Source: a virus
DNA: 64,000 bases
IMG/VR virus record: IMGVR_UViG_3300022927_001391
Span: 41,169-105,168 of that record
Strand: one strand, 5' to 3'
The number at the start of each line of letters is the position of its first letter. The first letter of the stretch is position 1. The notes beneath the pieces were generated by a model. That model was not told where the DNA came from and did not search any database. It worked only from the letters and a program-made list of their open reading frames with translations. Shown piece after piece: positions 16,640 to 27,662 of the stretch. The position numbers and the translations under genes are program-made.

Positions 16640-16931
16640 ACACAATAAGCACCTAGAAAACTGTCAGTGGTTACATCTAATAAGTGTAGATTTCCCTGAA
16701 ACTCGTCATAGGCCTTATGATTATGATTACTGGGGATATCGTAACGTAGAAATAATTGACAGTGTAGAAGAACAAAAGGAAACCATCCTGGGCCTACTAC
16801 ACGAAAGTTATGGGCCGCAGGATGGTTTATGGAATATAAGATGGAGTGACGCAGGTGCAGACATCAGATTTAAAACTGAATCTGATGCTGCTAGTTTCCT
16901 GATGCTGTATACCCTTCAGCCTATTAGTTAA
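16617..16931 (+). CDS. Hypothetical phage protein
   Basis: ORF; C-terminal W..RW....IRF..E.DA..F.M pattern. Confidence 0.55.
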   Translation: MPTKYRLRHNKHLENCQWLHLISVDFPETRHRPYDYDYWGYRNVEIIDSVEEQKETILGLLHESYGPQDGLWNIRWSDAGADIRFKTESDAASFLMLYTLQPIS

Positions 16932-18216
16932 CCTTTTTGTCGTAATAAGCCCAGTTACCAAATGCTGGCTTGATGTTATCCGGACCATGGATAATAAACA
17001 CAGTATCGCAGTAGAATTCGTCACCCCAGGTACCACAGGGATAACCATCAGTAAACATCACAAACCGGTTAGGCTGGATGTCGTTGTCCTTCATAAATTT
17101 CCAGTTACATTCAAACATCGTACCGCCACCGCCCTGGGGCTCATATGTCATGATGTCGTCGATGTTGGTAGCGTCAAACTCAGCGTAGTTATAGACTTCG
17201 GTATCGAAGCACCAGAGCTTGATCTTGAAGTCTGTGTACATATCCATGATGGCCTTAATCTCGCTAAAGAAATCACGGGCCTGTTCGTTGCTGATGCTGC
17301 CGCTCATATCCACAGCAACCGCAATATCAATGGTAGTCTCAGGAACCATGCCGGGCAGCAGGAAGTCACTGCCCCAGCTCTTACGGCTACGGCGCATAAA
17401 ACTGTAGTCGCTTTTGATTGAGCTTTCAATGCTCATCGCAAGCATGCTGCGCCAGTCCATCTTGGGCTCAGTAAGATCCTTAACAATGCGAGCAACACCT
17501 GCAGGAAGGTTACCAGCGCCACCAGCCTGCTTGGCACTGTTGATTAATGCTTCCTTAATCTCATCACGGATCTTCTTGCGCTCTTCGTCAGAATAAGTGG
17601 GCTTACCCGAGCTCTTGAGGTTACCGTTCTCGTCCTCACTAATGCCGCCAGAACCGCCCTCGCCATCATCGCCTTCAAGATGCTCGTCCAGCAGCATATC
17701 AATATACTGCTCTAGATCAATCTTTTCAGCGTTGTCATAGAGATCGTCGTAAATCTCCTCCATGCTCATATTGTAGTACTTACGGTCATGTAGAGCAGGC
17801 ACTGTAGTAATAAGCTCACCAATGCGGCTCTGCACCAGATCTCCGTTTACAGCAAAGTCAGCAGCAATGTTCGCAATCTGAGCGTCATGTTTGTTGAGCT
17901 TGCTACGGCCCAGATGCTCGTAGACATTGTGAAGTACCTCATGCCCAAACAGGAACTCTACTTCCTTGCTCTTGAGCATGTTGATGAACTTGCTATTATA
18001 ATAGAAGTGGCGACCGTCAGTAGCTGCTGTGGGCAACCACTGATCTGCATTCACAAGCGGCAACCGAGTTGCCATATTACCAAACCATGCTGCCTTGAGA
18101 AGCAGGCTAACGCGAGCAGTAGTGAGCTTCTCGCGAGCATCTAGATCTTCCTGACGAACTGTCTCGAACCCCACAGGGAGGTTTACGTGCTTCTTGTTTG
18201 CTGTAGTCGTGGTCAT
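16924..18216 (-). CDS. DUF2201-like metallopeptidase-VWA domain protein
   Basis: TAATDG, HEVLH (HEXXH), NIAADFAVN, VDMSGS (MIDAS), GGGGT, FTDG. Confidence 0.85.
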   Translation of the reverse strand: MTTTTANKKHVNLPVGFETVRQEDLDAREKLTTARVSLLLKAAWFGNMATRLPLVNADQWLPTAATDGRHFYYNSKFINMLKSKEVEFLFGHEVLHNVYEHLGRSKLNKHDAQIANIAADFAVNGDLVQSRIGELITTVPALHDRKYYNMSMEEIYDDLYDNAEKIDLEQYIDMLLDEHLEGDDGEGGSGGISEDENGNLKSSGKPTYSDEERKKIRDEIKEALINSAKQAGGAGNLPAGVARIVKDLTEPKMDWRSMLAMSIESSIKSDYSFMRRSRKSWGSDFLLPGMVPETTIDIAVAVDMSGSISNEQARDFFSEIKAIMDMYTDFKIKLWCFDTEVYNYAEFDATNIDDIMTYEPQGGGGTMFECNWKFMKDNDIQPNRFVMFTDGYPCGTWGDEFYCDTVFIIHGPDNIKPAFGNWAYYDKKVN

Positions 18217-18235
18217 ATGTATCTCCTATATGTAT

Positions 18236-18265
18236 ATATTAACATAAGGACAGCGGCTGTCAACC
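18236..18265 (-). promoter_or_regulatory. Early promoter cassette for the VWA gene
   Basis: GGTTGACA, 16 bp ending ATGT, TAATAT on the minus strand, then AGGAG RBS. Confidence 0.65.
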
Positions 18266-18267
18266 GC

Positions 18268-18558
18268 TTACCCCCCAATTTGCAGAGGGGTAAGCATGTT
18301 AGCAGGAACCTTCCAAACAGTGTTGGTATTGCCTTCGAACACATTCACCCACTTGCGACCAACCTTGCGGACCTTGCCCGTTACAGTTGAGCCAGTGCGG
18401 GTGGACTCAAAGCTGACAATATCACCAACCATCAGCTTGCGAATGTTCTGCTTAGTGAGCTGCTGACGACGCATCTTAATAGCATGGACGACATCGTCCA
18501 GCTGGCGGTCTGTCATCTGCTGAATATCTGCTACGACACTGTCTACTACGTGGATCAT
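18268..18558 (-). CDS. Hypothetical early protein (SH3/KOW-like C-terminus)
   Basis: GAGGAG RBS; VGDIVSF...GKV.KV...V.V....WKVPA.ML. Confidence 0.65.
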   Translation of the reverse strand: MIHVVDSVVADIQQMTDRQLDDVVHAIKMRRQQLTKQNIRKLMVGDIVSFESTRTGSTVTGKVRKVGRKWVNVFEGNTNTVWKVPANMLTPLQIGG

Positions 18559-18588
18559 CTCTTGCTCCTCAATTTCAACTTATAATGT

Positions 18589-18618
18589 ATAATAGCACGG
18601 ATGCTATTATCGTCAACC
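18589..18618 (-). promoter_or_regulatory. Early promoter cassette
   Basis: GGTTGACG, 16 bp ending GTGC, TATTAT; leader GAAATTGAGGAGCAAGAGATG. Confidence 0.7.
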
Positions 18619-18623
18619 AAAAA

Positions 18624-18683
18624 AACCCGCAGAAAACTACGATTCTATTATTTTTTTAAACCGCAGAAAACTGCGATTTTTTT
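18624..18683. repeat. Imperfect direct repeat of a palindromic unit between divergent promoters
   Basis: CCGCAGAAAACTACGATT and CCGCAGAAAACTGCGATT; the second contains the CGCAG-AAAA-CTGCG inverted repeat; flanked by A/T tracts. Confidence 0.75.
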
Positions 18684-18690
18684 AGGTTAG

Positions 18691-18724
18691 AAACGGTTGA
18701 CTATCTGGTTACCCGTGCTATTAT
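18691..18724 (+). promoter_or_regulatory. Early promoter cassette
   Basis: AAACGGTTGACT, 16 bp ending GTGC, TATTAT; leader GGAAATGAGGAGCAAGCATATG. Confidence 0.7.
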
Positions 18725-18755
18725 GAAGCATAAGTTGGAAATGAGGAGCAAGCAT

Positions 18756-18983
18756 ATGTTTATAAGCGAATGGAAGAAATCGGATTGGCGTACCACAGAA
18801 ACGTGGGAGTCGATCAACTGTTCGAGCGGTGATGTAACAATCACCAAGATTGGCGATGGATTCATGGGTCGCGACCCTAACGGCATGCTGGTTTCACAGT
18901 TTCCTGATACCTGGGAAAACACTGTTCGGATGATGGAATCTTGCTTTGATTGGCGTATAGATTTAGGTGAAAAAATAGCCTAA
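18756..18983 (+). CDS. Hypothetical early protein
   Basis: Start reassigned to ATG 18756 after GAGGAG. Confidence 0.6.
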   Translation: MFISEWKKSDWRTTETWESINCSSGDVTITKIGDGFMGRDPNGMLVSQFPDTWENTVRMMESCFDWRIDLGEKIA

Positions 18984-19016
18984 AACGGTTGACGAAACCC
19001 TTATACGTGCTAATAT
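18983..19016 (+). promoter_or_regulatory. Early promoter cassette
   Basis: AAACGGTTGACG, 16 bp ending GTGC, TAATAT; leader GGAAATGAGGAGCAAGCACATG. Confidence 0.7.
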
Positions 19017-19044
19017 GTATATATAGGAAATGAGGAGCAAGCAC

Positions 19045-19386
19045 ATGGACAAGATGTACAAAGTTATCGAAGATTTGGACAACAAGCGCAACGAGCAGGG
19101 TTTTGAGACTCGTTGGAGCATGTTTGGCGAAGAGATTGTTGATCTCAACGACCGTGTTGTTAACGAAGAGCGTGATATGTATCGTGTAACTTATCGTGCT
19201 TTTGACGAGAACCTGCAGGAATATGAGTTTAGCTCGTTCACTGCTACGAACACTGTAGAGGGTTTTTGGGCAGCGGCTGAGTCCGTTTTCCAGCAGGCCA
19301 GACGTGAAGTTGGTGATTGGCATGTGTTTGTCGAAGGCTTTAATCTCGTTGAGGATGGTAGCTTCCGGCTTACCACTGGCTCGTAA
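19045..19386 (+). CDS. Hypothetical early protein
   Basis: Start reassigned to ATG 19045 after GAGGAG; GDWHVFVEGF motif. Confidence 0.65.
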   Translation: MDKMYKVIEDLDNKRNEQGFETRWSMFGEEIVDLNDRVVNEERDMYRVTYRAFDENLQEYEFSSFTATNTVEGFWAAAESVFQQARREVGDWHVFVEGFNLVEDGSFRLTTGS

Positions 19387-19387
19387 A

Positions 19388-19417
19388 GGTTGACACATAG
19401 CACAGATGTGCTATGTT
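19388..19417 (+). promoter_or_regulatory. Early promoter cassette for the MoxR gene
   Basis: GGTTGACA, 16 bp ending GTGC, TATGTT; overlaps the ACATAGCAC/GTGCTATGT inverted repeat. Confidence 0.6.
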
Positions 19418-19445
19418 TAGATATTAGTTAAACAAGGAGAAAGAA

Positions 19446-20555
19446 ATGGCAGACATTGATGCCCGTACTGTTACTCTTGCAGAAGCCGAGAATCGTATCG
19501 TTCGTGCTTTCCGCAATAAGCTTCCGGTTTTCCTCTGGGGGCCTCCGGGTGTAGGCAAGAGCGAGCTTATGGCTGGCATTGCTGACAAGGGCACCTTGGG
19601 TAATACTGCCCTGGTAGATATCCGTGTTGCTCTTATGGAGCCTACGGACCTGCGTGGCATGCCGTTCCTTAGCAAGAGTCAGGATAACATGCTCTGGGCT
19701 CCCCCTGTGGATCTGCCCAGCGAGGAGATGGCTGCTGAGTATGATACTGTCATCCTGTTCCTGGATGAAATGAACTCAGCCGCGCCGGCTGTGCAGGCCG
19801 CTGCCTACCAGCTGATTCTCAACCGTCGCATCGGCACCTACAAGCTTCCCGATAACGTGGTTATCGTTGCTGCTGGTAACCGTGAGAGCGACAAGGGTGT
19901 TACCTACCGTATGCCCACTCCGCTGGCCAACCGTTTCGTCCACCTTGAGGTCCGTCCGGACTATGAGAGCTGGCTGAACTGGGCTGTTAACAACCAGATC
20001 AATGAAGATGTGGTGGGTTATATCAGCTTCGCCAAGCAGGATCTCATGGACTTTGATCCTCGCTCTAGCGGCCGCTCGTTTGCTACGCCGCGTAGCTGGA
20101 CCTATGTTAGCCGCTTCCTGGAGGACGACGCAATCTCTGACAGCGAGCTCACTGACCTAGTCAGCGGTTGCGTGGGTGAGGGTGTTGCGATTAAGTTTAT
20201 GGCGCACCGTAAGGTTGCCAAGGACATGCCGCATCCTGCGGATATCCTTGCTGGCAAGGTTAAGGAGCTCAAGATTAAGGAGATCAGCGCCCAGTATGCC
20301 CTGACTATTGGCATGTGTTACGAGCTCAAGAATGCCTACGACGACTTTGGTAAGAAGGACGCCAAGCGGTGGCACGAGATGGCTGACAACTTCTTCCGGT
20401 TCATGATGGACTTCTTCCCCACGGAGATGACTGTTATGGGTGCTCGTACGGCTATCACCAACTACAACCTGCCCTTCCAGCCGGACAAGCTGGCGAACTT
20501 TAAGGAGTTTTTTGACCGGTTTGGCAAGTATGTTGTTAAGGCTATGGAGAACTAA
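19446..20555 (+). CDS. MoxR-type AAA+ ATPase
   Basis: Walker A GPPGVGKS, Walker B LFLDEMN, AAGNR, PLANRF, TPRSW. Confidence 0.9.
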   Translation: MADIDARTVTLAEAENRIVRAFRNKLPVFLWGPPGVGKSELMAGIADKGTLGNTALVDIRVALMEPTDLRGMPFLSKSQDNMLWAPPVDLPSEEMAAEYDTVILFLDEMNSAAPAVQAAAYQLILNRRIGTYKLPDNVVIVAAGNRESDKGVTYRMPTPLANRFVHLEVRPDYESWLNWAVNNQINEDVVGYISFAKQDLMDFDPRSSGRSFATPRSWTYVSRFLEDDAISDSELTDLVSGCVGEGVAIKFMAHRKVAKDMPHPADILAGKVKELKIKEISAQYALTIGMCYELKNAYDDFGKKDAKRWHEMADNFFRFMMDFFPTEMTVMGARTAITNYNLPFQPDKLANFKEFFDRFGKYVVKAMEN

Positions 20556-20556
20556 G

Positions 20557-20826
20557 ATGACTGACCTTACACTCGCGGAAGACTTTGCGCCCTGGTGGGA
20601 GTTGTACAAGTACAAAGATCGTGAAATTCCAGCCAGGGAGTTTGGTGACCAAAAGGTTGTTTATAAGCATGGTAGCAACCGCGGATGGCCTGGCGATGAA
20701 GAGGATGTACAGTATTGGGTGGAACTTGAGAACGGATTTGCTGTAGGTATGCGTCATGGACGTGGACCCAGCGGCGCTCGTAGAGCACAGTATGCTGAAT
20801 TTCCTGTGGTTAGAATGAAAGCTTAA
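20557..20826 (+). CDS. Hypothetical protein
   Basis: ATG 20557 after GGAG; WVELENG.AVG motif. Confidence 0.6.
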   Translation: MTDLTLAEDFAPWWELYKYKDREIPAREFGDQKVVYKHGSNRGWPGDEEDVQYWVELENGFAVGMRHGRGPSGARRAQYAEFPVVRMKA

Positions 20827-20832
20827 CCAAGT

Positions 20833-21300
20833 CTAATTTTTAAGAAGTTTGGTTAGTTCCTCTATAACTTTGGAACACTGAGCGCTTTTGTGGAATAACA
20901 TCTGTATCTGCTCCTTAGCAGGTACAGATTCCACAATTTTTTGTAATAACGTAGTTTGCTCTAAGGTGTACAGCGCCATAATTTGATCGTTAGTAATGCT
21001 ATTAGATTGAATAAGTATGTTGCCTATCTCTACGGATATCTTTTCGCCGGCATCCCAGTCAGCTTTAAGATTTTCCTTTATAGCATTGGCACTAGCGGCA
21101 GGTTCAGTTTTTTCTAGGTCCTCCTTAAACGCCTGGTAAATATCAACATAAACTGCTGCTATTTTATATGAGGCCTGGCAGGATATTATAGAACTTAGTC
21201 CGTTACGTAACGTGTCTATTTTAGATTGAGCATACGCCATATTACTAAAGAGAAAAAAAGACAATAAAGTTAAGATTAATTTTGACTTCATGATAAACAA
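20833..21300 (-). CDS. Hypothetical secreted helical protein
   Basis: Signal peptide MKSKLILTLLSFFLFSNMAYA|Q; two Cys; lone antisense AT-rich gene. Confidence 0.65.
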   Translation of the reverse strand: MFIMKSKLILTLLSFFLFSNMAYAQSKIDTLRNGLSSIISCQASYKIAAVYVDIYQAFKEDLEKTEPAASANAIKENLKADWDAGEKISVEIGNILIQSNSITNDQIMALYTLEQTTLLQKIVESVPAKEQIQMLFHKSAQCSKVIEELTKLLKN

Positions 21301-22237: not shown

Positions 22238-22917
22238 TGAAGGTAAGCCTGGTTAGTTTTAGTCAAGCCAGTCCAGAGTTTTTAACTGAACACGGTCTTA
22301 CTGACGCAGATGTGCAGGACCTTATTGCGTTCTGTGCTAGAGTCAGCAACCCTAGTGGACAGTTAAACATGGAAACTAGCGCCAAGCTCATCAAATATCT
22401 CATCAAACACAAGCACTGGTCTCCCCTAGAAATGGTTAGTGCTTGTATGGAGATTGAAACTACTCGTGACATAGCAAGGCAGATCCTACGTCACAGGAGT
22501 TTTAGTTTCCAGGAATTTAGTCAACGCTATGCTGATCCCACAAAGGATTTAGAGTTCGTTACCCGTGAAGCACGTTTGCAGGATACTACAAACAGGCAGA
22601 ACAGCATTGATACAGAAGATGCTAGTCTACAAGCAACATGGGAAAATAAACAGCTCAATGTTATCGAAGCTGCTCAAAAGGCATATGCGTGGGCTATTGA
22701 GAATGGTATTGCTAAAGAACAAGCCAGAGCTGTATTGCCTGAGGGCAATACAGTAAGCCGCATGTATATGAACGGTACGCTACGTAGTTGGGTACACTAC
22801 ATTGAACTACGTGGTGCTAATGGTACTCAAAAAGAACACATGGATATTGCCCATGCGTGTGCACGAGTAATTGCAGATGTGTTCCCACTTGCGGACGAAA
22901 TGTTTGAATGGACGTAA
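22237..22917 (+). CDS. thyX: FAD-dependent thymidylate synthase
   Basis: HWSPLEM, RQILRHRSFSFQEFSQRY, EQARAVLP, GTLRSW.HY..LR, TQKEH. Confidence 0.95.
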   Translation: MKVSLVSFSQASPEFLTEHGLTDADVQDLIAFCARVSNPSGQLNMETSAKLIKYLIKHKHWSPLEMVSACMEIETTRDIARQILRHRSFSFQEFSQRYADPTKDLEFVTREARLQDTTNRQNSIDTEDASLQATWENKQLNVIEAAQKAYAWAIENGIAKEQARAVLPEGNTVSRMYMNGTLRSWVHYIELRGANGTQKEHMDIAHACARVIADVFPLADEMFEWT

Positions 22918-23449: not shown

Positions 23450-24416
23450 ACTATACGAGGAACTATCTCCAAGTTTAGAACGCATGAACGACCTGGTTTT
23501 AAAATCAGGTCGTGTCATGTTGGGCGAATTTACTGAAAAATTTGAAAACAGAATAGCAACTGTTGCTGGTGTTGAACATGCCGCAGTAGTAGGCAGTGGC
23601 AGTGATGCCTTGTATTATGCTCTAATAGCAGAAAAGGTAGATGGACCAGTAGCAATGCCTGCGCAAACATTTATTGCTACTAGCAATAGCATCGCAAGAG
23701 CAGGATGTCAGCCTGTGTGTATTGACATTAAACCTAATGGATTGCTTGATTGGAATTTAGTTCCGCAAGAGATTGAAACAGCGGTATGGGTAGGATTGTT
23801 TGGAAACACTGAACATATTCCTGATGACTGTTTTGTAATAGAAGATGGTGCTCAACATTTTGGAGCGCCCTTACAAGCAGACACTGCTGCTTACAGTTTT
23901 GATCCCACAAAAGCATTACCCAACTTTGGCAATGGTGGTGCTGTAGTAAGCTGGGATAAAAAGGTTATTGATAGAGTAAAAGAATTACGTAGACATCATA
24001 CAGTAGACGGGCATGTTGGTGGCAATAGTATTATGAGCGAGCGTGATTGTGCTGAGATGCTAGTTAAATTAGATCATTTCCCGTTCTGGCAAGAGCGTAG
24101 ACAGGAGATTGCTAGAGATTATCATCAGCAGTTAGGCAGATACGTAAAGTGTGTAACTGATGCAGATGGACAAGTTAGTAAGTTTGTTATTGAAACATCA
24201 CGTAGAGCTGACTTACAAGCACATCTAACACATCGTAAAATAGAAACAAAACGTGCCTATAGTGAGCCTATTGCTACACTAGACAGAGCAGTGGCAAACT
24301 GTCATAAGTTTTTACAGTTGCCTTGCGATCCATATATGACTGATGAAGAACTGTTAGCTGTTGTAGTGGCTATCAAAGAATTCTTTGAGGAAAGCCCACT
24401 CGAAGGTTTGCTGTAG
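23424..24416 (+). CDS. DegT/DnrJ/EryC1/StrS NDP-sugar aminotransferase
   Basis: GSGSDAL, TFIAT, IEDGAQHFG, YSFDPTKALPNFGNGGAV; start adjusted to ATG 23424. Confidence 0.85.
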   Translation: MIRLHNLNRLYEELSPSLERMNDLVLKSGRVMLGEFTEKFENRIATVAGVEHAAVVGSGSDALYYALIAEKVDGPVAMPAQTFIATSNSIARAGCQPVCIDIKPNGLLDWNLVPQEIETAVWVGLFGNTEHIPDDCFVIEDGAQHFGAPLQADTAAYSFDPTKALPNFGNGGAVVSWDKKVIDRVKELRRHHTVDGHVGGNSIMSERDCAEMLVKLDHFPFWQERRQEIARDYHQQLGRYVKCVTDADGQVSKFVIETSRRADLQAHLTHRKIETKRAYSEPIATLDRAVANCHKFLQLPCDPYMTDEELLAVVVAIKEFFEESPLEGLL

Positions 24417-25595
24417 ATCATTTCCATCTTGAACATACTTGACTGCATCTTCAGCACCTCGCACACTCCACTCACCGTTCTCACCATTACCAACTGTACT
24501 CCATTGCTCTAGTCTATAACGACTCTCAATGTCCGACTGTTGAGTAAGTTTAACACACTCACGAAACGCTGTACGCCAAGTTTCATATGGTGTGGTGTTA
24601 AAGTCAGCAGTGCTTCCTACGACAGGTACTACACCATGTCTAGCACTTAGCGTAAAATCCAATCCCCATTCTGTAGCATCTAACACCATCTGTTTGTGGT
24701 ATGCAATAATACCCATGTGCCCATATTCTAGTCCGTTAACAGGATTACGACTATGAAATATCCAGTGTTTGGGCCCTTGTAGCCAGTCCGGTTGCCACTT
24801 AAAATTAAAGTCGGGCTCGACGATACACTTAGCAAACACGTTAAAGAACCAGGGTGTTTCGCTTATCTCAGCACAGGCTTTGTATGCTTGTGCTCTGCCT
24901 GTGACGCCGTCTATGCGCTTGGCTCTAGGGCACTGTGCCTTTAACAGAAACCAGTTTTTATCGGCGTTTTTTTCACCATTACTAAGATATACAACATCTA
25001 GTGGCTTTTCTTCTATATTATAGTCCGTATGACGCAATATGTATGGGTAGTCATAGAATTGGTCCTTAAAATGCTGTTTACAGTCCCTAGGCACTAGTAG
25101 TACACTGCCGCTCTGTGTAAAGGCGTGTAGATCACGTTTTTTCCATAGACTGGGATCATAGTTAATGTCTGCGGGAGTTTGCTTGTGCCATGCATATAGG
25201 CTTGTTTGTTCATTCAAACTATCAACTGTAGGCCACTCATAACGCTGTATATAGGGCTCTGTATGCCAGTTGATATGCTTGTACCACTCTAGTAGTTTAA
25301 GGCCCTCTTGTTGACGCTTAAAAGCAGCTACAGGCACTAGGAAAGTATCCCCAAACTGCTGGTTACCGCTAGCCCAACAGTGTATCTGATCTGCTTCCCA
25401 GGGTGCAGGTTGCCATGTAAAATCAAATGTTGCATAATTGCAACAGTCTGCTACAATCCACACATACTCTGTACGAGCACGGTTAACACACCTACGTATT
25501 GTATCTAGGTGTGTACCGTTCCAACGAGTGTATTGTGTGTGGGCTGGTAGGTCAACAGTATTACCTGTAATCTGCATGCAAAAGATATCAAACAT
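24354..25595 (-). CDS. Glycosyltransferase-like protein (GT-A-like, two domains)
   Basis: C-terminal half parallels 42187..43113 (YLS..E, RIDGV.G, NP/AVNGL.YG, WR..FRE.VK); N-terminal half has EYVWIVAD. Confidence 0.55.
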   Translation of the reverse strand: MFDIFCMQITGNTVDLPAHTQYTRWNGTHLDTIRRCVNRARTEYVWIVADCCNYATFDFTWQPAPWEADQIHCWASGNQQFGDTFLVPVAAFKRQQEGLKLLEWYKHINWHTEPYIQRYEWPTVDSLNEQTSLYAWHKQTPADINYDPSLWKKRDLHAFTQSGSVLLVPRDCKQHFKDQFYDYPYILRHTDYNIEEKPLDVVYLSNGEKNADKNWFLLKAQCPRAKRIDGVTGRAQAYKACAEISETPWFFNVFAKCIVEPDFNFKWQPDWLQGPKHWIFHSRNPVNGLEYGHMGIIAYHKQMVLDATEWGLDFTLSARHGVVPVVGSTADFNTTPYETWRTAFRECVKLTQQSDIESRYRLEQWSTVGNGENGEWSVRGAEDAVKYVQDGNDLQQTFEWAFLKEFFDSHYNS

Positions 25596-25596
25596 T

Positions 25597-26247
25597 CTAT
25601 AAAAACTTATTCATAATGAAATCAGCTATAGCCCTATGTCCTATTCTGTTAGGATGCATTTCACATGGCCTTATAAAATTTTGAACATCACTATTATTAT
25701 CTTGTAGCCAACATGAAAAATCTCCACAATGTGGATATTCTGCAAAGTAATTTTGTGTGTCAAAAACTTCTTTGACTAAACAAGAACGTTTACTAATTAA
25801 CCATGCGTTATCTGGAATCAGATCGTACAAGAAACTTTCTGCTAACTGCCCTGCAAATAAATTTACAAAGTAGCACTGTATACCCAAATCCTGGCACCAT
25901 TTATATAAAATATAAAGAGTTTGGCTTGCAACTATGTCATCATTGTAGTCGTTGCCAGTCATTTGTAGTATGCGAAGTTCACTAATTTCTTGGGCAGTGC
26001 CTTCTGAATAATCTATGTAGTTATTGTAATCTTTGTAAAACATCTGTCTACTTGGATCTGTCAAACAAAAAATTGCTATACTAAAATCTTTTCGTACCTC
26101 ATTAAAACGTCTAAGTAATCCAGGAATACTTGTTCCGTTAACACCATAGTTGTTTGATCCTAACAAACAAGGAAAAGACCACTTACTATCTAACTCAGCT
26201 CCATATACCCAACTATCTCCAAAAAAAACTACACGATTAAAATCCAA
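25597..26247 (-). CDS. SGNH/GDSL-like protein
   Basis: FGDSWVYG, NYGVNGTS, HPNRIGH. Confidence 0.7.
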   Translation of the reverse strand: MDFNRVVFFGDSWVYGAELDSKWSFPCLLGSNNYGVNGTSIPGLLRRFNEVRKDFSIAIFCLTDPSRQMFYKDYNNYIDYSEGTAQEISELRILQMTGNDYNDDIVASQTLYILYKWCQDLGIQCYFVNLFAGQLAESFLYDLIPDNAWLISKRSCLVKEVFDTQNYFAEYPHCGDFSCWLQDNNSDVQNFIRPCEMHPNRIGHRAIADFIMNKFL

Positions 26248-27202
26248 GATACTGCTCCCTATTATTAATTAAAAAATTAGTTTCCTGTTCAATCCAATTG
26301 AGTGTGTTTAGACTGCGTTGGACATTCTTTCGATACACATTTCTATTATGATTAAATCTAGATTCGAGTTGAACGATATCATATTCTGTTAACGGTATTT
26401 TACTTAACCTCAATACTTCTTGCTGGAATCTCCACATACGGACATCATGATTAGACTCATTGTCAAAACTTGTATCAACAATGTTATCAAAAACATCAAA
26501 TCCTAAATTTTTAAGATACTGGTAAGTGCCCCTGGGTCCATAGATAAGAGGTATGTAGCCCCATAAAAAAGGTTTAATACTTTTTTCTGTTAATCCTATA
26601 TAATTTTCTGTACAGTAGGTTTCTGCACATACGTCAAACAAAAAGTTATGCACAGGATAGAAGTTTCCTACATTGGGACCTATATCCCTATGTACTTTGT
26701 CCTCCAAAAAGTTTTTATACGGTTGTTCTATTTCATCTTCTATATAGCCGCGCTGGCTATTATTATTATAACTTGCATATGATAAATCTAATAACTGGTT
26801 GTCTTTAAAAAAATAAAATAGTTCTTTTCTTGGCTTAGTAGGTCGGTTGTTAAGGAAACAAAAAGTTTTCTCAAGGGAGACTTTCCTAAGTTTAGGCAAC
26901 TCATCAAAAGTATGATCAAAATTTACAGCATTCTGAAATTTTAAAAATAATAATTCGGGTCTATAAACATAGTTAAAGTTTGAAAAATGATTGATAAACA
27001 GAGAGGGATAATAACAAAAACTGTACAGTCTGTAATATTTTGTGTAAAGGTTGTTTATTTTTTTGTCAGTAACCTGTTTTACCCATTCAACAATATCTTT
27101 ATCAAAATTGTCGTCCCAATGGATTAATGTTACTATACTCGACCGTTCGTTTTTCCAGTAAATATCATGGTAAATTTCAAAATTTGATAATTTAGGAATC
27201 AC
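26237..27202 (-). CDS. GT-B/GT10-like glycosyltransferase
   Basis: FLNNRP..PR, ET...TEKSIKPF, LKNLGFDVF, SFDNE. Confidence 0.55.
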   Translation of the reverse strand: MIPKLSNFEIYHDIYWKNERSSIVTLIHWDDNFDKDIVEWVKQVTDKKINNLYTKYYRLYSFCYYPSLFINHFSNFNYVYRPELLFLKFQNAVNFDHTFDELPKLRKVSLEKTFCFLNNRPTKPRKELFYFFKDNQLLDLSYASYNNNSQRGYIEDEIEQPYKNFLEDKVHRDIGPNVGNFYPVHNFLFDVCAETYCTENYIGLTEKSIKPFLWGYIPLIYGPRGTYQYLKNLGFDVFDNIVDTSFDNESNHDVRMWRFQQEVLRLSKIPLTEYDIVQLESRFNHNRNVYRKNVQRSLNTLNWIEQETNFLINNREQYLGF

Positions 27203-27662
27203 TTAATTGCTCCACTGGTATGTTACATTCCTGCAGAAACTTTAGTCCAGCATCCAGTCTATATGGATGCACATAATACACTTCACTAATGCCGCTTTGA
27301 TATAAAAGTTTAGCACATTCCATACAAGGTTGATGTGTTATAAAAGCACTGGCACCTTCGCCGCTCTCACTACAGCGAGCAAGTTTCGCGATAGCATTAG
27401 ACTCTGCATGAAGCACTTCTGGTTTAGTAACTAACTCCTTTGTTACCTCAATCTTAGATACTTTAGAAAAGACCTCATCTTCACATTCATTAGTCCAGCC
27501 GCTGGGCATCCCATTGTAGCCAATGCTAATAACACGATTGTCTTTAACAATCACACAACCAACCTTTAATCTGACAGCAGTACTACATTCAGCATATGCA
27601 AACGCTGCTTTCATGTGTGCTACTTTGTGCTTTTCTTTCACAGTCCTAAATCCATTCTCCAT
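27192..27662 (-). CDS. dCMP deaminase
   Basis: VGCVIV, GYNG.P.G, HAESNAI, PCMECAK. Confidence 0.92.
   Translation of the reverse strand: MENGFRTVKEKHKVAHMKAAFAYAECSTAVRLKVGCVIVKDNRVISIGYNGMPSGWTNECEDEVFSKVSKIEVTKELVTKPEVLHAESNAIAKLARCSESGEGASAFITHQPCMECAKLLYQSGISEVYYVHPYRLDAGLKFLQECNIPVEQLSDS

Follow-up and report, generated by a model that had tools for sequence, protein, structure and literature searches.

The 64 kb stretch of DNA analysed in this study (the window) is part of a fragment of a PA5oct-like jumbo phage, the full record of which is 105 kb long. The region discussed here is built around two genes. Positions 16924..18216 on the minus strand encode a 430 aa protein with a metallopeptidase (HExxH) domain and a VWA (MIDAS) domain, the partner and putative adaptor of a 369 aa MoxR-like AAA+ ATPase, which is encoded at 19446..20555 on the plus strand. 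The VWA protein matches the Pfam families DUF2201_N (E 4.8e-34; 118.6 bits, cut-off 23.2) and DUF2201/VWA (39.9, cut-off 26.4) and belongs to phrog_1314 (E 6.5e-99). The ATPase matches AAA (27.4, cut-off 21.2) and AAA_5 (25.2, cut-off 22) and belongs to phrog_1297 (E 1.7e-101); against AAA_3, the MoxR model proper, it scores 23.5, under the Pfam cut-off of 27. In alignments of 15 and 17 relatives, the HExxH (H92, E93, H96) and MIDAS (D303, S305, S307, T339, D390) residues of the VWA protein, as well as the Walker A (G32..K38 S39) and Walker B (D107 E108) residues of the ATPase, are invariant. The initial annotation had named the two genes as a MoxR AAA+ ATPase and a DUF2201-like VWA/HEXXH protein that are functional partners and point apart around a promoter hub, and its observations are confirmed as a whole, although its interpretation is only partly supported.

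Structure prediction agrees with these assignments. In a fold comparison the VWA model gave Z 11.8 (rmsd 2.9, 134 residues aligned), and it resembles the NorD VWA chain of the NorQ–NorD VWA complex (9qh8_G, Z 10.6) and BchD (2x31, Z 9.6), while the sequence matches of the ATPase to solved chains are marginal (midasin, E 7.8e-4). Predicted pairing of the two proteins scored 0.46 (three runs: 0.63, 0.46 and 0.24; best control 0.01), with at least 57% of contacts agreeing between runs and a partner pLDDT of at least 74. Of 157 solved complexes, 116 attain the pass mark applied, as do 2 of 215 mismatched pairs; the passes scoring 0.60 or less comprise 18 of the 157 solved complexes and both mismatches. 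The prediction lends weak support to the idea that the two proteins pair, and since a like complex has already been solved, the pass may reflect memory.

The 1.2 kb hub between the divergent genes contains five near-identical sigma70-type promoter/RBS cassettes. Matches to the pattern GGTTGAC-N14-TG-N-TANNNT occur five times in the window, all within 18236–19417 (0.01 expected from 100 shuffles), and are absent from the rest of the 105 kb record; these five sites served to define the pattern, yet it recurs before orthologous genes in relatives. The cassette of the VWA gene (18236..18265, minus strand) reads GGTTGACA-N-TGtTAATAT followed by an AGGAG RBS, and that of the ATPase (19388..19417, plus strand) reads GGTTGACA-N-TGcTATGTT followed by AAGGAG. 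The same promoter class precedes both genes in the related loci L004, L019, L013 and L015, and the 121Q ATPase is preceded by consensus TTGACA...TGaTATAAT-type sites. The remaining cassettes serve small genes: that of p96 (18589..18618, minus strand) is the inverted copy of a 58 nt promoter/RBS repeat (76% complementary), and those of p75 (18695..18724) and p113 (18987..19016) lie on the plus strand. Between the divergent promoters, at 18624..18684, are two 27 nt direct repeats, each with a short hairpin and a T run, where terminator-like matches are predicted at +18662 and -18642.

The small genes differ in their distribution. The gene for p96 (18268..18558, minus strand) encodes a protein with a putative C-terminal small beta-barrel; the Pfam model Phage_ProQ_C_like matches 4 of 8 family members, below the cut-off (best E 0.0013). 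In 13 loci a homologue is located 350–1040 bp upstream of the ATPase, which identifies p96 from its genomic context as a conserved companion of the ATPase/VWA module. The gene p75 (18756..18983, plus strand; its actual start codon is the ATG that follows a GAGGAG RBS) is lineage-specific and occurs elsewhere only in the close relative L036. Directly upstream of the ATPase lies p113 (19045..19386, plus strand), with homologues in the same position in L033 and L037 and a further copy in L036; a 173 aa minus-strand ORF overlapping it is less conserved (84% vs 94% for p113, compared with L036). Finally, p89 (20557..20826, plus strand) starts 1 nt past the ATPase stop codon and, judging from this spacing, its translation is probably coupled to that of the ATPase; a gene 58–70% identical to it follows the ATPase in L003, L004, L009, L019 and L013.

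The initial annotation had called the region an island, and this label is misleading since the two genes belong to a core whose synteny is conserved, their back-to-back arrangement being the only novelty. Across the IMG/VR relatives the order FEN, gp326-like, gp330-like, ATPase, VWA, ThyX is kept, and PA5oct retains it from FEN to VWA, with no ThyX match. Identities of the ATPase to relatives run parallel to those of FEN (81/81, 80/76, 66/68, 63/68, 52/60 and 49/50%). The 120 best of 8000 scored homologues have E values of at most 1e-20, and some are on contigs as long as 360 kb. On these comparisons, jumbo phages of the PA5oct/121Q type inherit the pair vertically as a core module. In 31 of the 32 IMG/VR loci showing both genes, the two share a strand, with the VWA gene downstream of the ATPase; only L036, the VWA gene of which is 98% identical, is also divergent. 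Compared with the window, L036 lacks p96 and has the segment 18678–19028 inverted, with inverted promoter cassettes on either side; in L036 this segment carries p75. The divergent layout is thus, from these alignments, a recent local rearrangement common only to the window and one near-identical contig, and we suspect that the repeated promoter cassettes are its cause. In addition, the ATPase cassette (19385–20543) is 91.7% identical to L003 while its flanks are 70–80% identical, which shows that relatives have recently recombined.

The composition of the region is clearly unusual, and the claim that the pair is richer in GC and in C- and G-ending codons is borne out. GC per 1 kb over 17001–21000 is 0.485, 0.462, 0.505 and 0.489 (up to 0.58 in 150 nt windows), compared with a maximum of 0.457 elsewhere and 0.397 for the genome. 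GC3 reaches 0.651 in the ATPase, 0.568 in the VWA gene and 0.588 in p96, against 0.318 (G3 0.152, C3 0.166) in 113 other ORFs, where the maximum is 0.451. However, the real signature is a loss of third-position A and not a general loss of AT. A3 is 0.027 in the ATPase, 0.096 in the VWA gene, 0.095 in p96 and 0.098 in p113, compared with a background of 0.316 ± 0.050 and a minimum elsewhere of 0.203, whereas T3 of these genes (0.32–0.39) is that of the background (0.366). NNA codons are thus near-totally excluded from the ATPase (10 of approximately 368 third positions counted), and codon fractions of the pair in the window are AAA 0.08, CAA 0.00, ATA 0.00, AGA 0.00, CCA 0.03 and GGA 0.02. In p75, A3 is 0.216, and the atypical stretch persists weakly to 20826 through p89 (GC3 0.43, A3 0.23).

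The same bias is found across the clade. In 21 loci, which are phylogenetically related and hence not independent samples, A3 lies below the neighbour mean in 20 for the ATPase (mean -0.132, Wilcoxon p 1.9e-6) and in all 21 for the VWA gene (-0.099), PA5oct, 121Q and Phosso included; in 16 of them the A3 of the ATPase is undercut by none of the neighbouring ORFs. T3 is not shifted (10 down, 11 up; p 0.81). The ATPase bias is missing in L033 (0.36 vs 0.34) and weak in L015 and L017. Between the window and most relatives, differences at synonymous sites have reached saturation (proportion 0.62–0.88), and because the bias persists nonetheless it is not a passive relic.

These data bear on two explanations that do not invoke translation. 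The genes could be a moron acquired horizontally from a GC-richer phage or host and not yet ameliorated, as might be suspected from a composition that changes at gene boundaries, from the separate promoter of each gene (in PA5oct each has a separate terminator as well; PMC7318152, sheet S4) and from the L003-like segment. This is largely refuted and improbable: the pair is syntenic in every relative showing the region and diverges in step with flanking core genes, the bias recurs in mutually saturated lineages, and the best 120 of the 8000 homologues include no named bacterial one. In PA5oct the two genes moreover form separate GC-rich patches 2.9 kb apart. T3 of the pair is undepleted, unlike that of the truly GC-rich PA5oct genes gp38 (0.08) and gp98 (0.03). 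A second possibility is that the repeated promoter cassettes, and in PA5oct a homing endonuclease, have made a recombination hot spot subject to GC-biased gene conversion or to a local mutational bias. The hub is visibly recombinogenic (inversion, deletion, mosaic identity), and the PA5oct pair is separated by, among others, a homing endonuclease gene. Such a process would be expected to lower A and T alike, in intergenic DNA as well as at every codon position. What falls is A at third positions only, in the coding sense and in genes on both strands, and the AT-rich genes that separate the PA5oct pair show no such effect (GC3 0.18–0.22). The depletion of A without T refutes this explanation, which we regard as highly improbable.

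An explanation in terms of tRNA supply is suggested by PA5oct; because the 105 kb fragment contains no tRNA gene, the argument is carried over from there. The PA5oct tRNAs read UUA, ACA, AGA, CCA, GGA and UCA, plus AAC, AGC and AUG (including Table S8). The family fractions of the six A-ending codons are 0.04, 0.00, 0.08, 0.00, 0.16 and 0.03 in the PA5oct ATPase and VWA genes, compared with 0.50, 0.38, 0.46, 0.21, 0.33 and 0.15 in ten bulk genes, and the pair thus avoids exactly those codons for which the phage supplies tRNAs. Its usage does not mirror that of the host, since the T-ending codons GCT and GGT, rare in PAO1 (0.04 and 0.10), stay common in it (0.45 and 0.33).

The initial annotation had further proposed that the genes are first-expressed, for which we find no direct support. 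The published PA5oct early genes are gp34–gp105 and gp450, a list without the orthologue gp335; neither gp335 nor gp340 is named among them in the text, and none of the 32 listed promoters is theirs (PMC7318152). Among the 40 annotated CDS of 240 nt or longer in the early block defined by RNA-seq (PMC7318152, section 6), GC3 exceeds 0.45 in 14 and 26 are not GC3-rich; outside this block, gp335, gp340 and gp272 are the only annotated CDS above that value. In all four metatranscriptome runs, contigs from RNA libraries that match the window identically fall on the ATPase, which speaks to presence only.

The module might instead be an abundant late chaperone-protease that processes structural proteins during virion assembly, its codon bias reflecting very high expression only. 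Iyer et al., drawing a parallel with the MoxR–vWA tail chaperones of ATV, proposed structural-protein processing in jumbo phages of group 2.2 (PMC7824862). It would fit an abundant late or assembly protein that gp335 was detected in purified virions by ESI-MS/MS (7 peptides, 22.6% coverage; PMC7318152, sheet S5), and the 121Q pair adjoins head and tail genes. Furthermore, small genes behind the same promoter motif in L013, L009 and L015 have ordinary A3 (means 0.33, 0.31 and 0.32 vs 0.29, 0.29 and 0.37), so that neither promoter class nor timing alone accounts for the bias, as would follow if amount, not timing, matters. High expression alone produces a weaker form of the bias, because the PA5oct major capsid (0.118) and ClpP (0.089) genes are partly depleted of phage-tRNA codons (compared with 0.383); the ATPase, at 0.020, is biased far more strongly than the capsid gene, presumably the most abundant late product. 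In addition, late genes could use the phage tRNAs, the pair has host-type -35 and extended -10 promoters, and its neighbours in this clade include genes of replication and nucleotide metabolism (FEN, ThyX). The MoxR ATPase of the distant Vequintavirus Bas54 is reported to be dispensable on E. coli K-12 and needed only against the defence system DS-28 (PMC13716836), which is also the sole experimental hint towards an anti-defence role. Taken together, we regard a purely late assembly function as rather unlikely.

We therefore favour, as probable though not certain, the view that the region is a local copy of the vertically inherited MoxR/VWA core module from which A-ending codons have been purged for translation by host tRNAs. 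Selection for the host tRNA pool is the best reading of the comparative data, and the proposal that codon usage is tuned to this pool and not imported holds up, as the bias is A3-specific, clade-wide, persistent at saturation and directed against phage-tRNA codons. Each gene carries a strong host-type promoter (sigma70, extended -10) and Shine–Dalgarno cassette of its own. The ATPase and VWA genes, and here also p96 and p113, would have lost A-ending and kept T-ending codons because G34/I34 tRNAs read both NNC and NNU and C34 tRNAs read NNG, so that a GC-richer host's tRNA pool could translate them rapidly and abundantly, with no need to wait for the NNA-reading tRNAs that the phage supplies. 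The driver of this selection may be either early timing or amount itself. By analogy with NorQ–NorD, CbbQ–CbbO and RavA–ViaA, the ATPase ring may remodel a client held by the VWA MIDAS site, which the fused zinc peptidase could then cut; a host defence target, a takeover target or a virion protein are candidate clients. A role in host takeover aimed at host defence proteins, as initially put forward, is speculation.

The gene pair itself is already in print (Iyer 2021; N4 gp24/gp25), whereas its codon signature, striking yet most likely explained by host-tRNA translation, was not found in literature searches or in the PA5oct paper searched for 'codon'. The closest known system is the MoxR AAA+/metallopeptidase–vWA pair of jumbo phages in group 2.2, which combines the same two families (Iyer et al., 2021, Viruses 13:63, PMC7824862). 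Its named members PA5oct gp335/gp340 (49% identical for the ATPase and 40% for the VWA protein) and 121Q gp563/gp564 share the neighbourhood and the GC3/A3 anomaly. Unlike in these phages, in the window the VWA gene has moved upstream and is inverted, and p96 and p113 are also codon-biased; unlike in PA5oct, no homing endonuclease lies between the partners. More distant homologues of both proteins (854 phage records match the ATPase and 683 the VWA-peptidase) include coliphage N4 gp24/gp25 and other N4-like and rV5-like pairs, at approximately 23–30% identity (N4 gp25: 23.5% over 84% of the query). In Vequintavirus, too, the peptidase gene and the MoxR gene are on opposite strands, separated by a few kb, and the codon anomaly is absent from N4 and the Vequintavirus MaxTheCat. 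The cellular NorQ–NorD, CbbQ–CbbO, RavA–ViaA and BchI–BchD systems likewise combine an AAA+ ring with a MIDAS-bearing VWA adaptor, but the phage VWA protein differs in its N-terminal HExxH domain and has no evident metal-cofactor client. Differences between early and late codon usage, and compensation by phage tRNAs, are familiar from phages such as T4, in which genes read by host tRNAs avoid the codons served by phage tRNAs. Compared with such systems, the effect described here centres on a single pair of conserved genes and approaches total exclusion of NNA codons.

It had been proposed in the initial annotation that a MoxR ATPase gene and a VWA-metallopeptidase gene diverge around a promoter hub and are both richer in GC and in codons ending in C or G than the AT-rich remainder of the sequence. 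Both ORFs, the ATPase gene at 19446-20555 on the plus strand and the VWA gene at 16924-18216 on the minus strand, are present as described, as is a hub with five promoter cassettes, and the compositional anomaly is confirmed as real and is well explained. In 1-kb steps the GC content is 0.46-0.51 over 17001-21000 compared with 0.397 for the record, and GC3 (the GC fraction at third codon positions) is 0.651 in the ATPase gene, 0.568 in the VWA gene and 0.588 in p96, a small gene of the hub. The mean is 0.318 for the 113 ORFs outside the island, which served as background within the 120 that a simple longest-ORF caller delivered, and the pair lies above this mean and also above the highest value found elsewhere (0.451). 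The A fraction at the same positions (A3) is 0.027 in the ATPase gene, 0.096 in the VWA gene, 0.095 in p96 and 0.098 in p113, another gene of the hub, against a background of 0.316 +/- 0.050 and a minimum elsewhere of 0.203; the T fraction (T3) of the depleted genes is 0.32-0.39 against 0.366. Codon by codon, the fractions in the module and in the background are 0.08 and 0.59 for AAA, 0.00 and 0.54 for CAA, 0.00 and 0.30 for ATA, 0.00 and 0.32 for AGA, 0.03 and 0.42 for CCA, 0.02 and 0.22 for GGA, and 0.02 and 0.26 for TTA, so that ATA, AGA and CAA are unused. Codons ending in T are maintained or increased in the module (GCT 0.49, GGT 0.51, CGT 0.53, ACT 0.46, GTT 0.47), and the G-ending AAG, CAG and GAG reach 0.92, 1.00 and 0.74. 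The loss of A3 follows the coding sense on both DNA strands, which ties it to the message and not to replication.

A patch of this kind could be a horizontally acquired island or moron, and the term island, which the initial annotation had used, holds for the atypical composition but not in the evolutionary sense. A moron should be patchily present in close relatives, but the pair was found, in syntenic position, in every relative that shows the region. A GC-rich donor should have brought low A3 together with low T3, but T3 in the pair (0.32-0.34) is near the background (0.366) and showed no shift across 21 related loci (10 down, 11 up). No bacterial donor was seen among the best 120 of 8000 scored homologues (E <= 1e-20), all of which are metagenomic and some of which lie on contigs of up to 360 kb. 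The families are large: the two members of the pair match 854 and 683 phage records and at least 8000 metagenomic proteins at E <= 1e-20. The window covers bases 41169-105168 of an IMG/VR record that is linear, is 105,168 bases long and has a CheckV completeness of 29, which makes it a fragment of a jumbo phage; its nearest cultured relatives are PA5oct-type Pseudomonas jumbo phages, with 49% protein identity in the ATPase and one 244-nt stretch of DNA at 76%. When nine PA5oct queries were used, DNA polymerase alone was matched in the fragment, and no homologues of the PA5oct capsid, portal or sheath were found there. A scan of IMG/VR gave 37 related loci, 32 of them with fetched DNA spanning both genes, and a VWA-domain partner lies beside the ATPase gene in the window and in all 32. 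In 31 of these it is downstream on the same strand; the sole exception is L036, a near-identical contig whose VWA gene is 98% identical to that of the window. The two genes are also co-directional in PA5oct, 121Q, Phosso and N4, and in one Vequintavirus the peptidase gene is on the opposite strand. The order FEN/RNase H, gp326-like, gp330-like, ATPase, VWA, ThyX is kept across the IMG/VR relatives and, from FEN/RNase H to VWA, in PA5oct, where ThyX was unmatched, and FEN identity and ATPase identity vary together across the relatives. On these comparisons the pair is an old core module in which the back-to-back layout alone is new.

The codon bias extends across the relatives. In a comparison of 21 loci, which are related rather than independent and from which one near-duplicate was dropped, A3 lay below the mean of the neighbouring genes for the ATPase in 20 loci and for the VWA gene in all 21. 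In AT-rich jumbo phages few genes are as strongly tuned to the host as this pair, the ATPase topping its neighbourhood in 16 of the 21 loci, where no neighbouring ORF undercuts its A3. In PA5oct, GC3 is 0.67 for the ATPase (gp335) and 0.50 for the VWA protein (gp340) against 0.22 for the neighbours, and AT-rich genes between the two are unaffected; GC3 of the ATPase gene is also raised in 121Q (+0.15) and Phosso (+0.17), and no codon anomaly was found in N4 or in one Vequintavirus. Most lineages differ from one another to saturation at synonymous sites (pS 0.62-0.88), and a bias not under selection would therefore have decayed. PA5oct has 12 tRNAs of its own, which serve codons that its pair avoids, namely UUA, ACA, AGA, CCA, GGA and UCA, and ATA is avoided too; this independence of codon usage from phage tRNAs was tested against the PA5oct tRNAs alone, no tRNA genes having been found in the 105-kb record. 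The PA5oct pair still makes frequent use of T-ending codons that the host genome seldom uses, so it is not a copy of host DNA, and the PA5oct genes that are genuinely GC-rich, gp38 and gp98, carry a different signature, with T3 of 0.08 and 0.03. A clade-wide and gene-specific bias, the saturation of synonymous sites and the match to the PA5oct tRNAs together favour translational selection over import or biased conversion, and we would argue that the bias reflects selection for the host tRNA pool; the tuning to that pool put forward in the initial annotation is borne out by the same three points, whereas the first expression and the anti-defence role proposed along with it are no more than possible, so that its interpretation is supported in part. 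By standard wobble rules, NNU codons share G34 or I34 tRNAs with NNC codons and NNG codons have C34 tRNAs, and it is the NNA codons alone that need U34 tRNAs; GC-rich hosts have few of these, and the phage brings its own. The host tRNA pool would thus select against NNA codons, and the ATPase and VWA mRNAs would be readable without phage-supplied U34 tRNAs. GC-rich patches in phage genomes are then not necessarily foreign DNA, and separating A3 from T3 tells selection from import. The partitioning of codons between early and late phage genes is a known idea. Our literature search brought up no paper that ties MoxR-VWA to codon usage, and this includes the codon passages of the PA5oct paper.

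Such strong host tuning implies that the phage needs rapid or large-scale production of the pair with what the host provides, and the bias may be driven either by early expression from the host RNA polymerase, before phage tRNAs are available, or by abundance, as for virion assembly, rather than timing. The upstream promoters are predicted to be of the host sigma70 type expected of an early class, with a host-type -35 and an extended -10, a prediction made from the match to the consensus (10 of 12 hexamer positions plus the TG). In PA5oct, where gp34-gp105 form an early block by RNA-seq (PMC7318152), genes of high GC3 are concentrated in that block: of its 40 annotated CDS with a length of 240 nt or more, 14 exceed a GC3 of 0.45, outside it gp335, gp340 and gp272 are the only annotated CDS to do so, and with a longest-ORF caller 16 of 20 ORFs above 0.45 fall within it. 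However, the remaining 26 of the 40 early-block genes are not GC3-rich, gp335 is not named among the early genes in the text of the same paper nor present in its promoter list (PMC7318152), A3 is not lowered in the small genes that promoters of the cassette class precede in L013, L009 and L015, and the same codon avoidance recurs in milder form in the PA5oct genes for capsid and ClpP. The PA5oct paper also places terminators after gp335 and gp340 and reports peptides of gp335 associated with the virion (PMC7318152). As a general marker of codon class the promoter class failed in L013, L009 and L015; the link between the two holds in the window (five genes, A3 0.106 vs 0.300), in L004 and in L019. 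The early-transcribed terminal-repeat block of PA5oct (7.5-38 kb, gp35-gp104), which holds the 14 GC3-rich genes, contains both kinds of gene, gp38 and gp98 being also poor in T3 like host DNA and gp35, gp80 and gp88 having the A3-only pattern, and it therefore mixes imported and codon-tuned genes. RNA-library contigs identical to the window lie on the ATPase in all four metatranscriptome runs, which speaks to presence only and not to ranking or timing; three of these runs leave 24009-27343 barely covered or bare, and low cover proves nothing. In thyX (22532-22822), RNA contig joints at 22532>22690 and 22751>22822 skip 157 and 70 bases in three or four runs, with short flanks and unlike continuations; other organisms with conserved stretches of thyX, and not an intron, are their most likely source.

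The hub between the two genes holds three small genes, p96, p75 and p113, and five copies of one promoter/RBS cassette, which reads GGTTGAC-N14-TG-N-TAnnnT, followed after about 20 nt by GAGGAG or AGGAG and the ATG, with one copy each ahead of the VWA gene, p96, p75, p113 and the ATPase gene. The pattern, which was derived from these five sites themselves, occurs five times in the window, where 0.01 occurrences are expected, and is otherwise absent from the 105-kb record; in L004, L019, L013, L009 and L015 it is independently present upstream of the orthologues of the ATPase, VWA and small genes. The positions of the cassettes place the true starts of p75 and p113 at 18756 and 19045; longer forms of both ORFs were rejected in favour of these starts downstream of the cassettes, and a 173-aa ORF on the minus strand (18877-19398) was rejected likewise. 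The divergent promoters of p96 and p75 have two 27-nt direct repeats (18624-18684) right between them, each consisting of a short hairpin of the CGCAG-AAAA-CTGCG type and a T run, which could serve as weak terminators, as UP elements or as a site for a regulator. The p96 gene (18268-18558) belongs to a family of small beta-barrel proteins of about 90-96 aa, encoded a short way upstream of the ATPase gene in several lineages (13 loci, among them L022:9272-9550 and L033:8961-9227), with a C-terminal SH3/Sm-like barrel seen through weak matches to ProQ_C-like and MS-channel beta-domains, and p96 may belong to the module as a third component. At the outer ends, the VWA and p104 ORFs converge with an 8-base overlap (16924-16931), and p89 (20557-20826), whose start codon is 1 base past the ATPase stop, converges with a signal-peptide gene (20833-21291) at a distance of 6 bases (20826-20833); these junctions leave no room for a terminator. 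Pairing of the ATPase mRNA's 3'-UTR with its own RBS was rejected, since p89 follows so closely and the plus strand carries no complement of the RBS further on.

Comparison with relatives shows the hub to be unstable. Between the window (18561-19047) and L036 (5279-5787), on a 94%-identical contig, a 351-bp segment with p75 (18678-19028) is inverted, and p96 (18270-18560 in this comparison) is absent from L036. The break points are marked by inverted and direct copies of the 58-nt cassette, and recombination between cassettes thus appears to reshuffle the hub. In L003 (9940-11101), the ATPase gene with its promoter (19385-20543) is 91.7% identical in DNA and the matching flanks are 70-80% identical, and this indicates that the ATPase gene and cassette were exchanged recently, on their own, between phage lineages.

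As to the proteins, the 369-residue ATPase has a Walker A motif (GPPGVGKS, residues 32-39) and a Walker B motif (LFLDE, 104-108) that are invariant across 17 sequences, and it passes the curated cut-offs of the Pfam families AAA (27.4 vs 21.2) and AAA_5 (25.2 vs 22). The MoxR-specific models AAA_3 (23.5 vs 27) and bpMoxR (15.8 vs 27) stay below theirs, no NCBIfam profile matched, a sequence search of solved structures gave a marginal match to midasin, and PADLOC returned nothing beyond a weak DolB AAA match (E 0.0011). Its motifs and its VWA partner gene fit a MoxR-type AAA+ ATPase, which would form a hexameric ring with ATPase activity. The 430-residue VWA protein is a DUF2201_N metallopeptidase (118.6 vs 23.2) fused to a DUF2201 VWA domain (39.9 vs 26.4), in which the HExxH zinc site (H92, E93, H96) and a complete MIDAS (DxSxS...T...D; D303, S305, S307, T339, D390) are invariant in 15 sequences. 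Its AlphaFold model (pLDDT 74.7) has a clear VWA fold at residues ~292-430 (Z 11.8, rmsd 2.9, 134 aligned residues), the NorQ-NorD VWA complex is among its structural matches (Z 10.6) and Foldseek gave integrin I-domains (E ~6e-4); a sequence search of solved structures gave no real match. Modelled alone (pLDDT 75.5, pTM 0.75), the N-terminal domain, a candidate zincin fold, had only HExxH enzymes as best structural matches, all weak (Z <= 4.7), and no Foldseek match at E <= 0.001. The VWA and ATPase proteins match the large phage families phrog_1314 and phrog_1297, respectively, at E ~1e-99 to 1e-101. Phrog_1314 and many GenBank records, e.g. 121Q gp564, name the VWA-metallopeptidase 'HNH endonuclease' or 'anti-sigma factor'; the former label conflicts with the metallopeptidase and VWA domains, and both appear to be propagated mis-annotations. 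Co-folding of the ATPase with the VWA protein gave a score of 0.46 (runs 0.63, 0.46 and 0.24; best control 0.01), with contact agreement of at least 57% and a partner pLDDT of at least 74. Of 157 solved complexes 116 pass the mark used, as do 2 of 215 mismatched pairs, but just 18 of the 157, plus both passing mismatches, pass with scores of 0.60 or less, and because a like complex has already been solved the pass may reflect memory. The co-fold lends weak support to a predicted binding of the two proteins.

The pair is present in hundreds of sequenced phages, and codon analysis offers a concrete handle on its role. A possible counter-defence role is hinted at by the HIDEN-SEQ study, which found the MoxR ATPase of Vequintavirus Bas54 to be needed only against the defence system DS-28 (PMC13716836); the homology of the window ATPase to this gene rests on the sequence from the congeneric Bas57 (30.5% identity, E 1e-31). 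If the module were a first-response counter-defence machine, its near-total avoidance of NNA codons would proof it against attack on tRNAs: translation of the ATPase and the protease could go on despite a shortage of U34 tRNAs (Lys-UUU, Gln-UUG, Glu-UUC and others), their cleavage by host anticodon nucleases or their loss in host shut-off. NNA avoidance combined with a private promoter class would then mark out a small 'tRNA-independent regulon' in jumbo phages, but we consider this scheme improbable. The gene pair itself is already known: N4 gp24/gp25 are the same pair, co-directional and without the codon anomaly, and in group 2.2 jumbo phages it was proposed by Iyer et al. (2021) to act in virion assembly with proteolytic processing (PMC7824862). 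Against these systems, the features new to the window are its inverted VWA gene, a hub with five exclusive cassettes, the spread of the bias to p96 and p113 and the A3 of 0.027.
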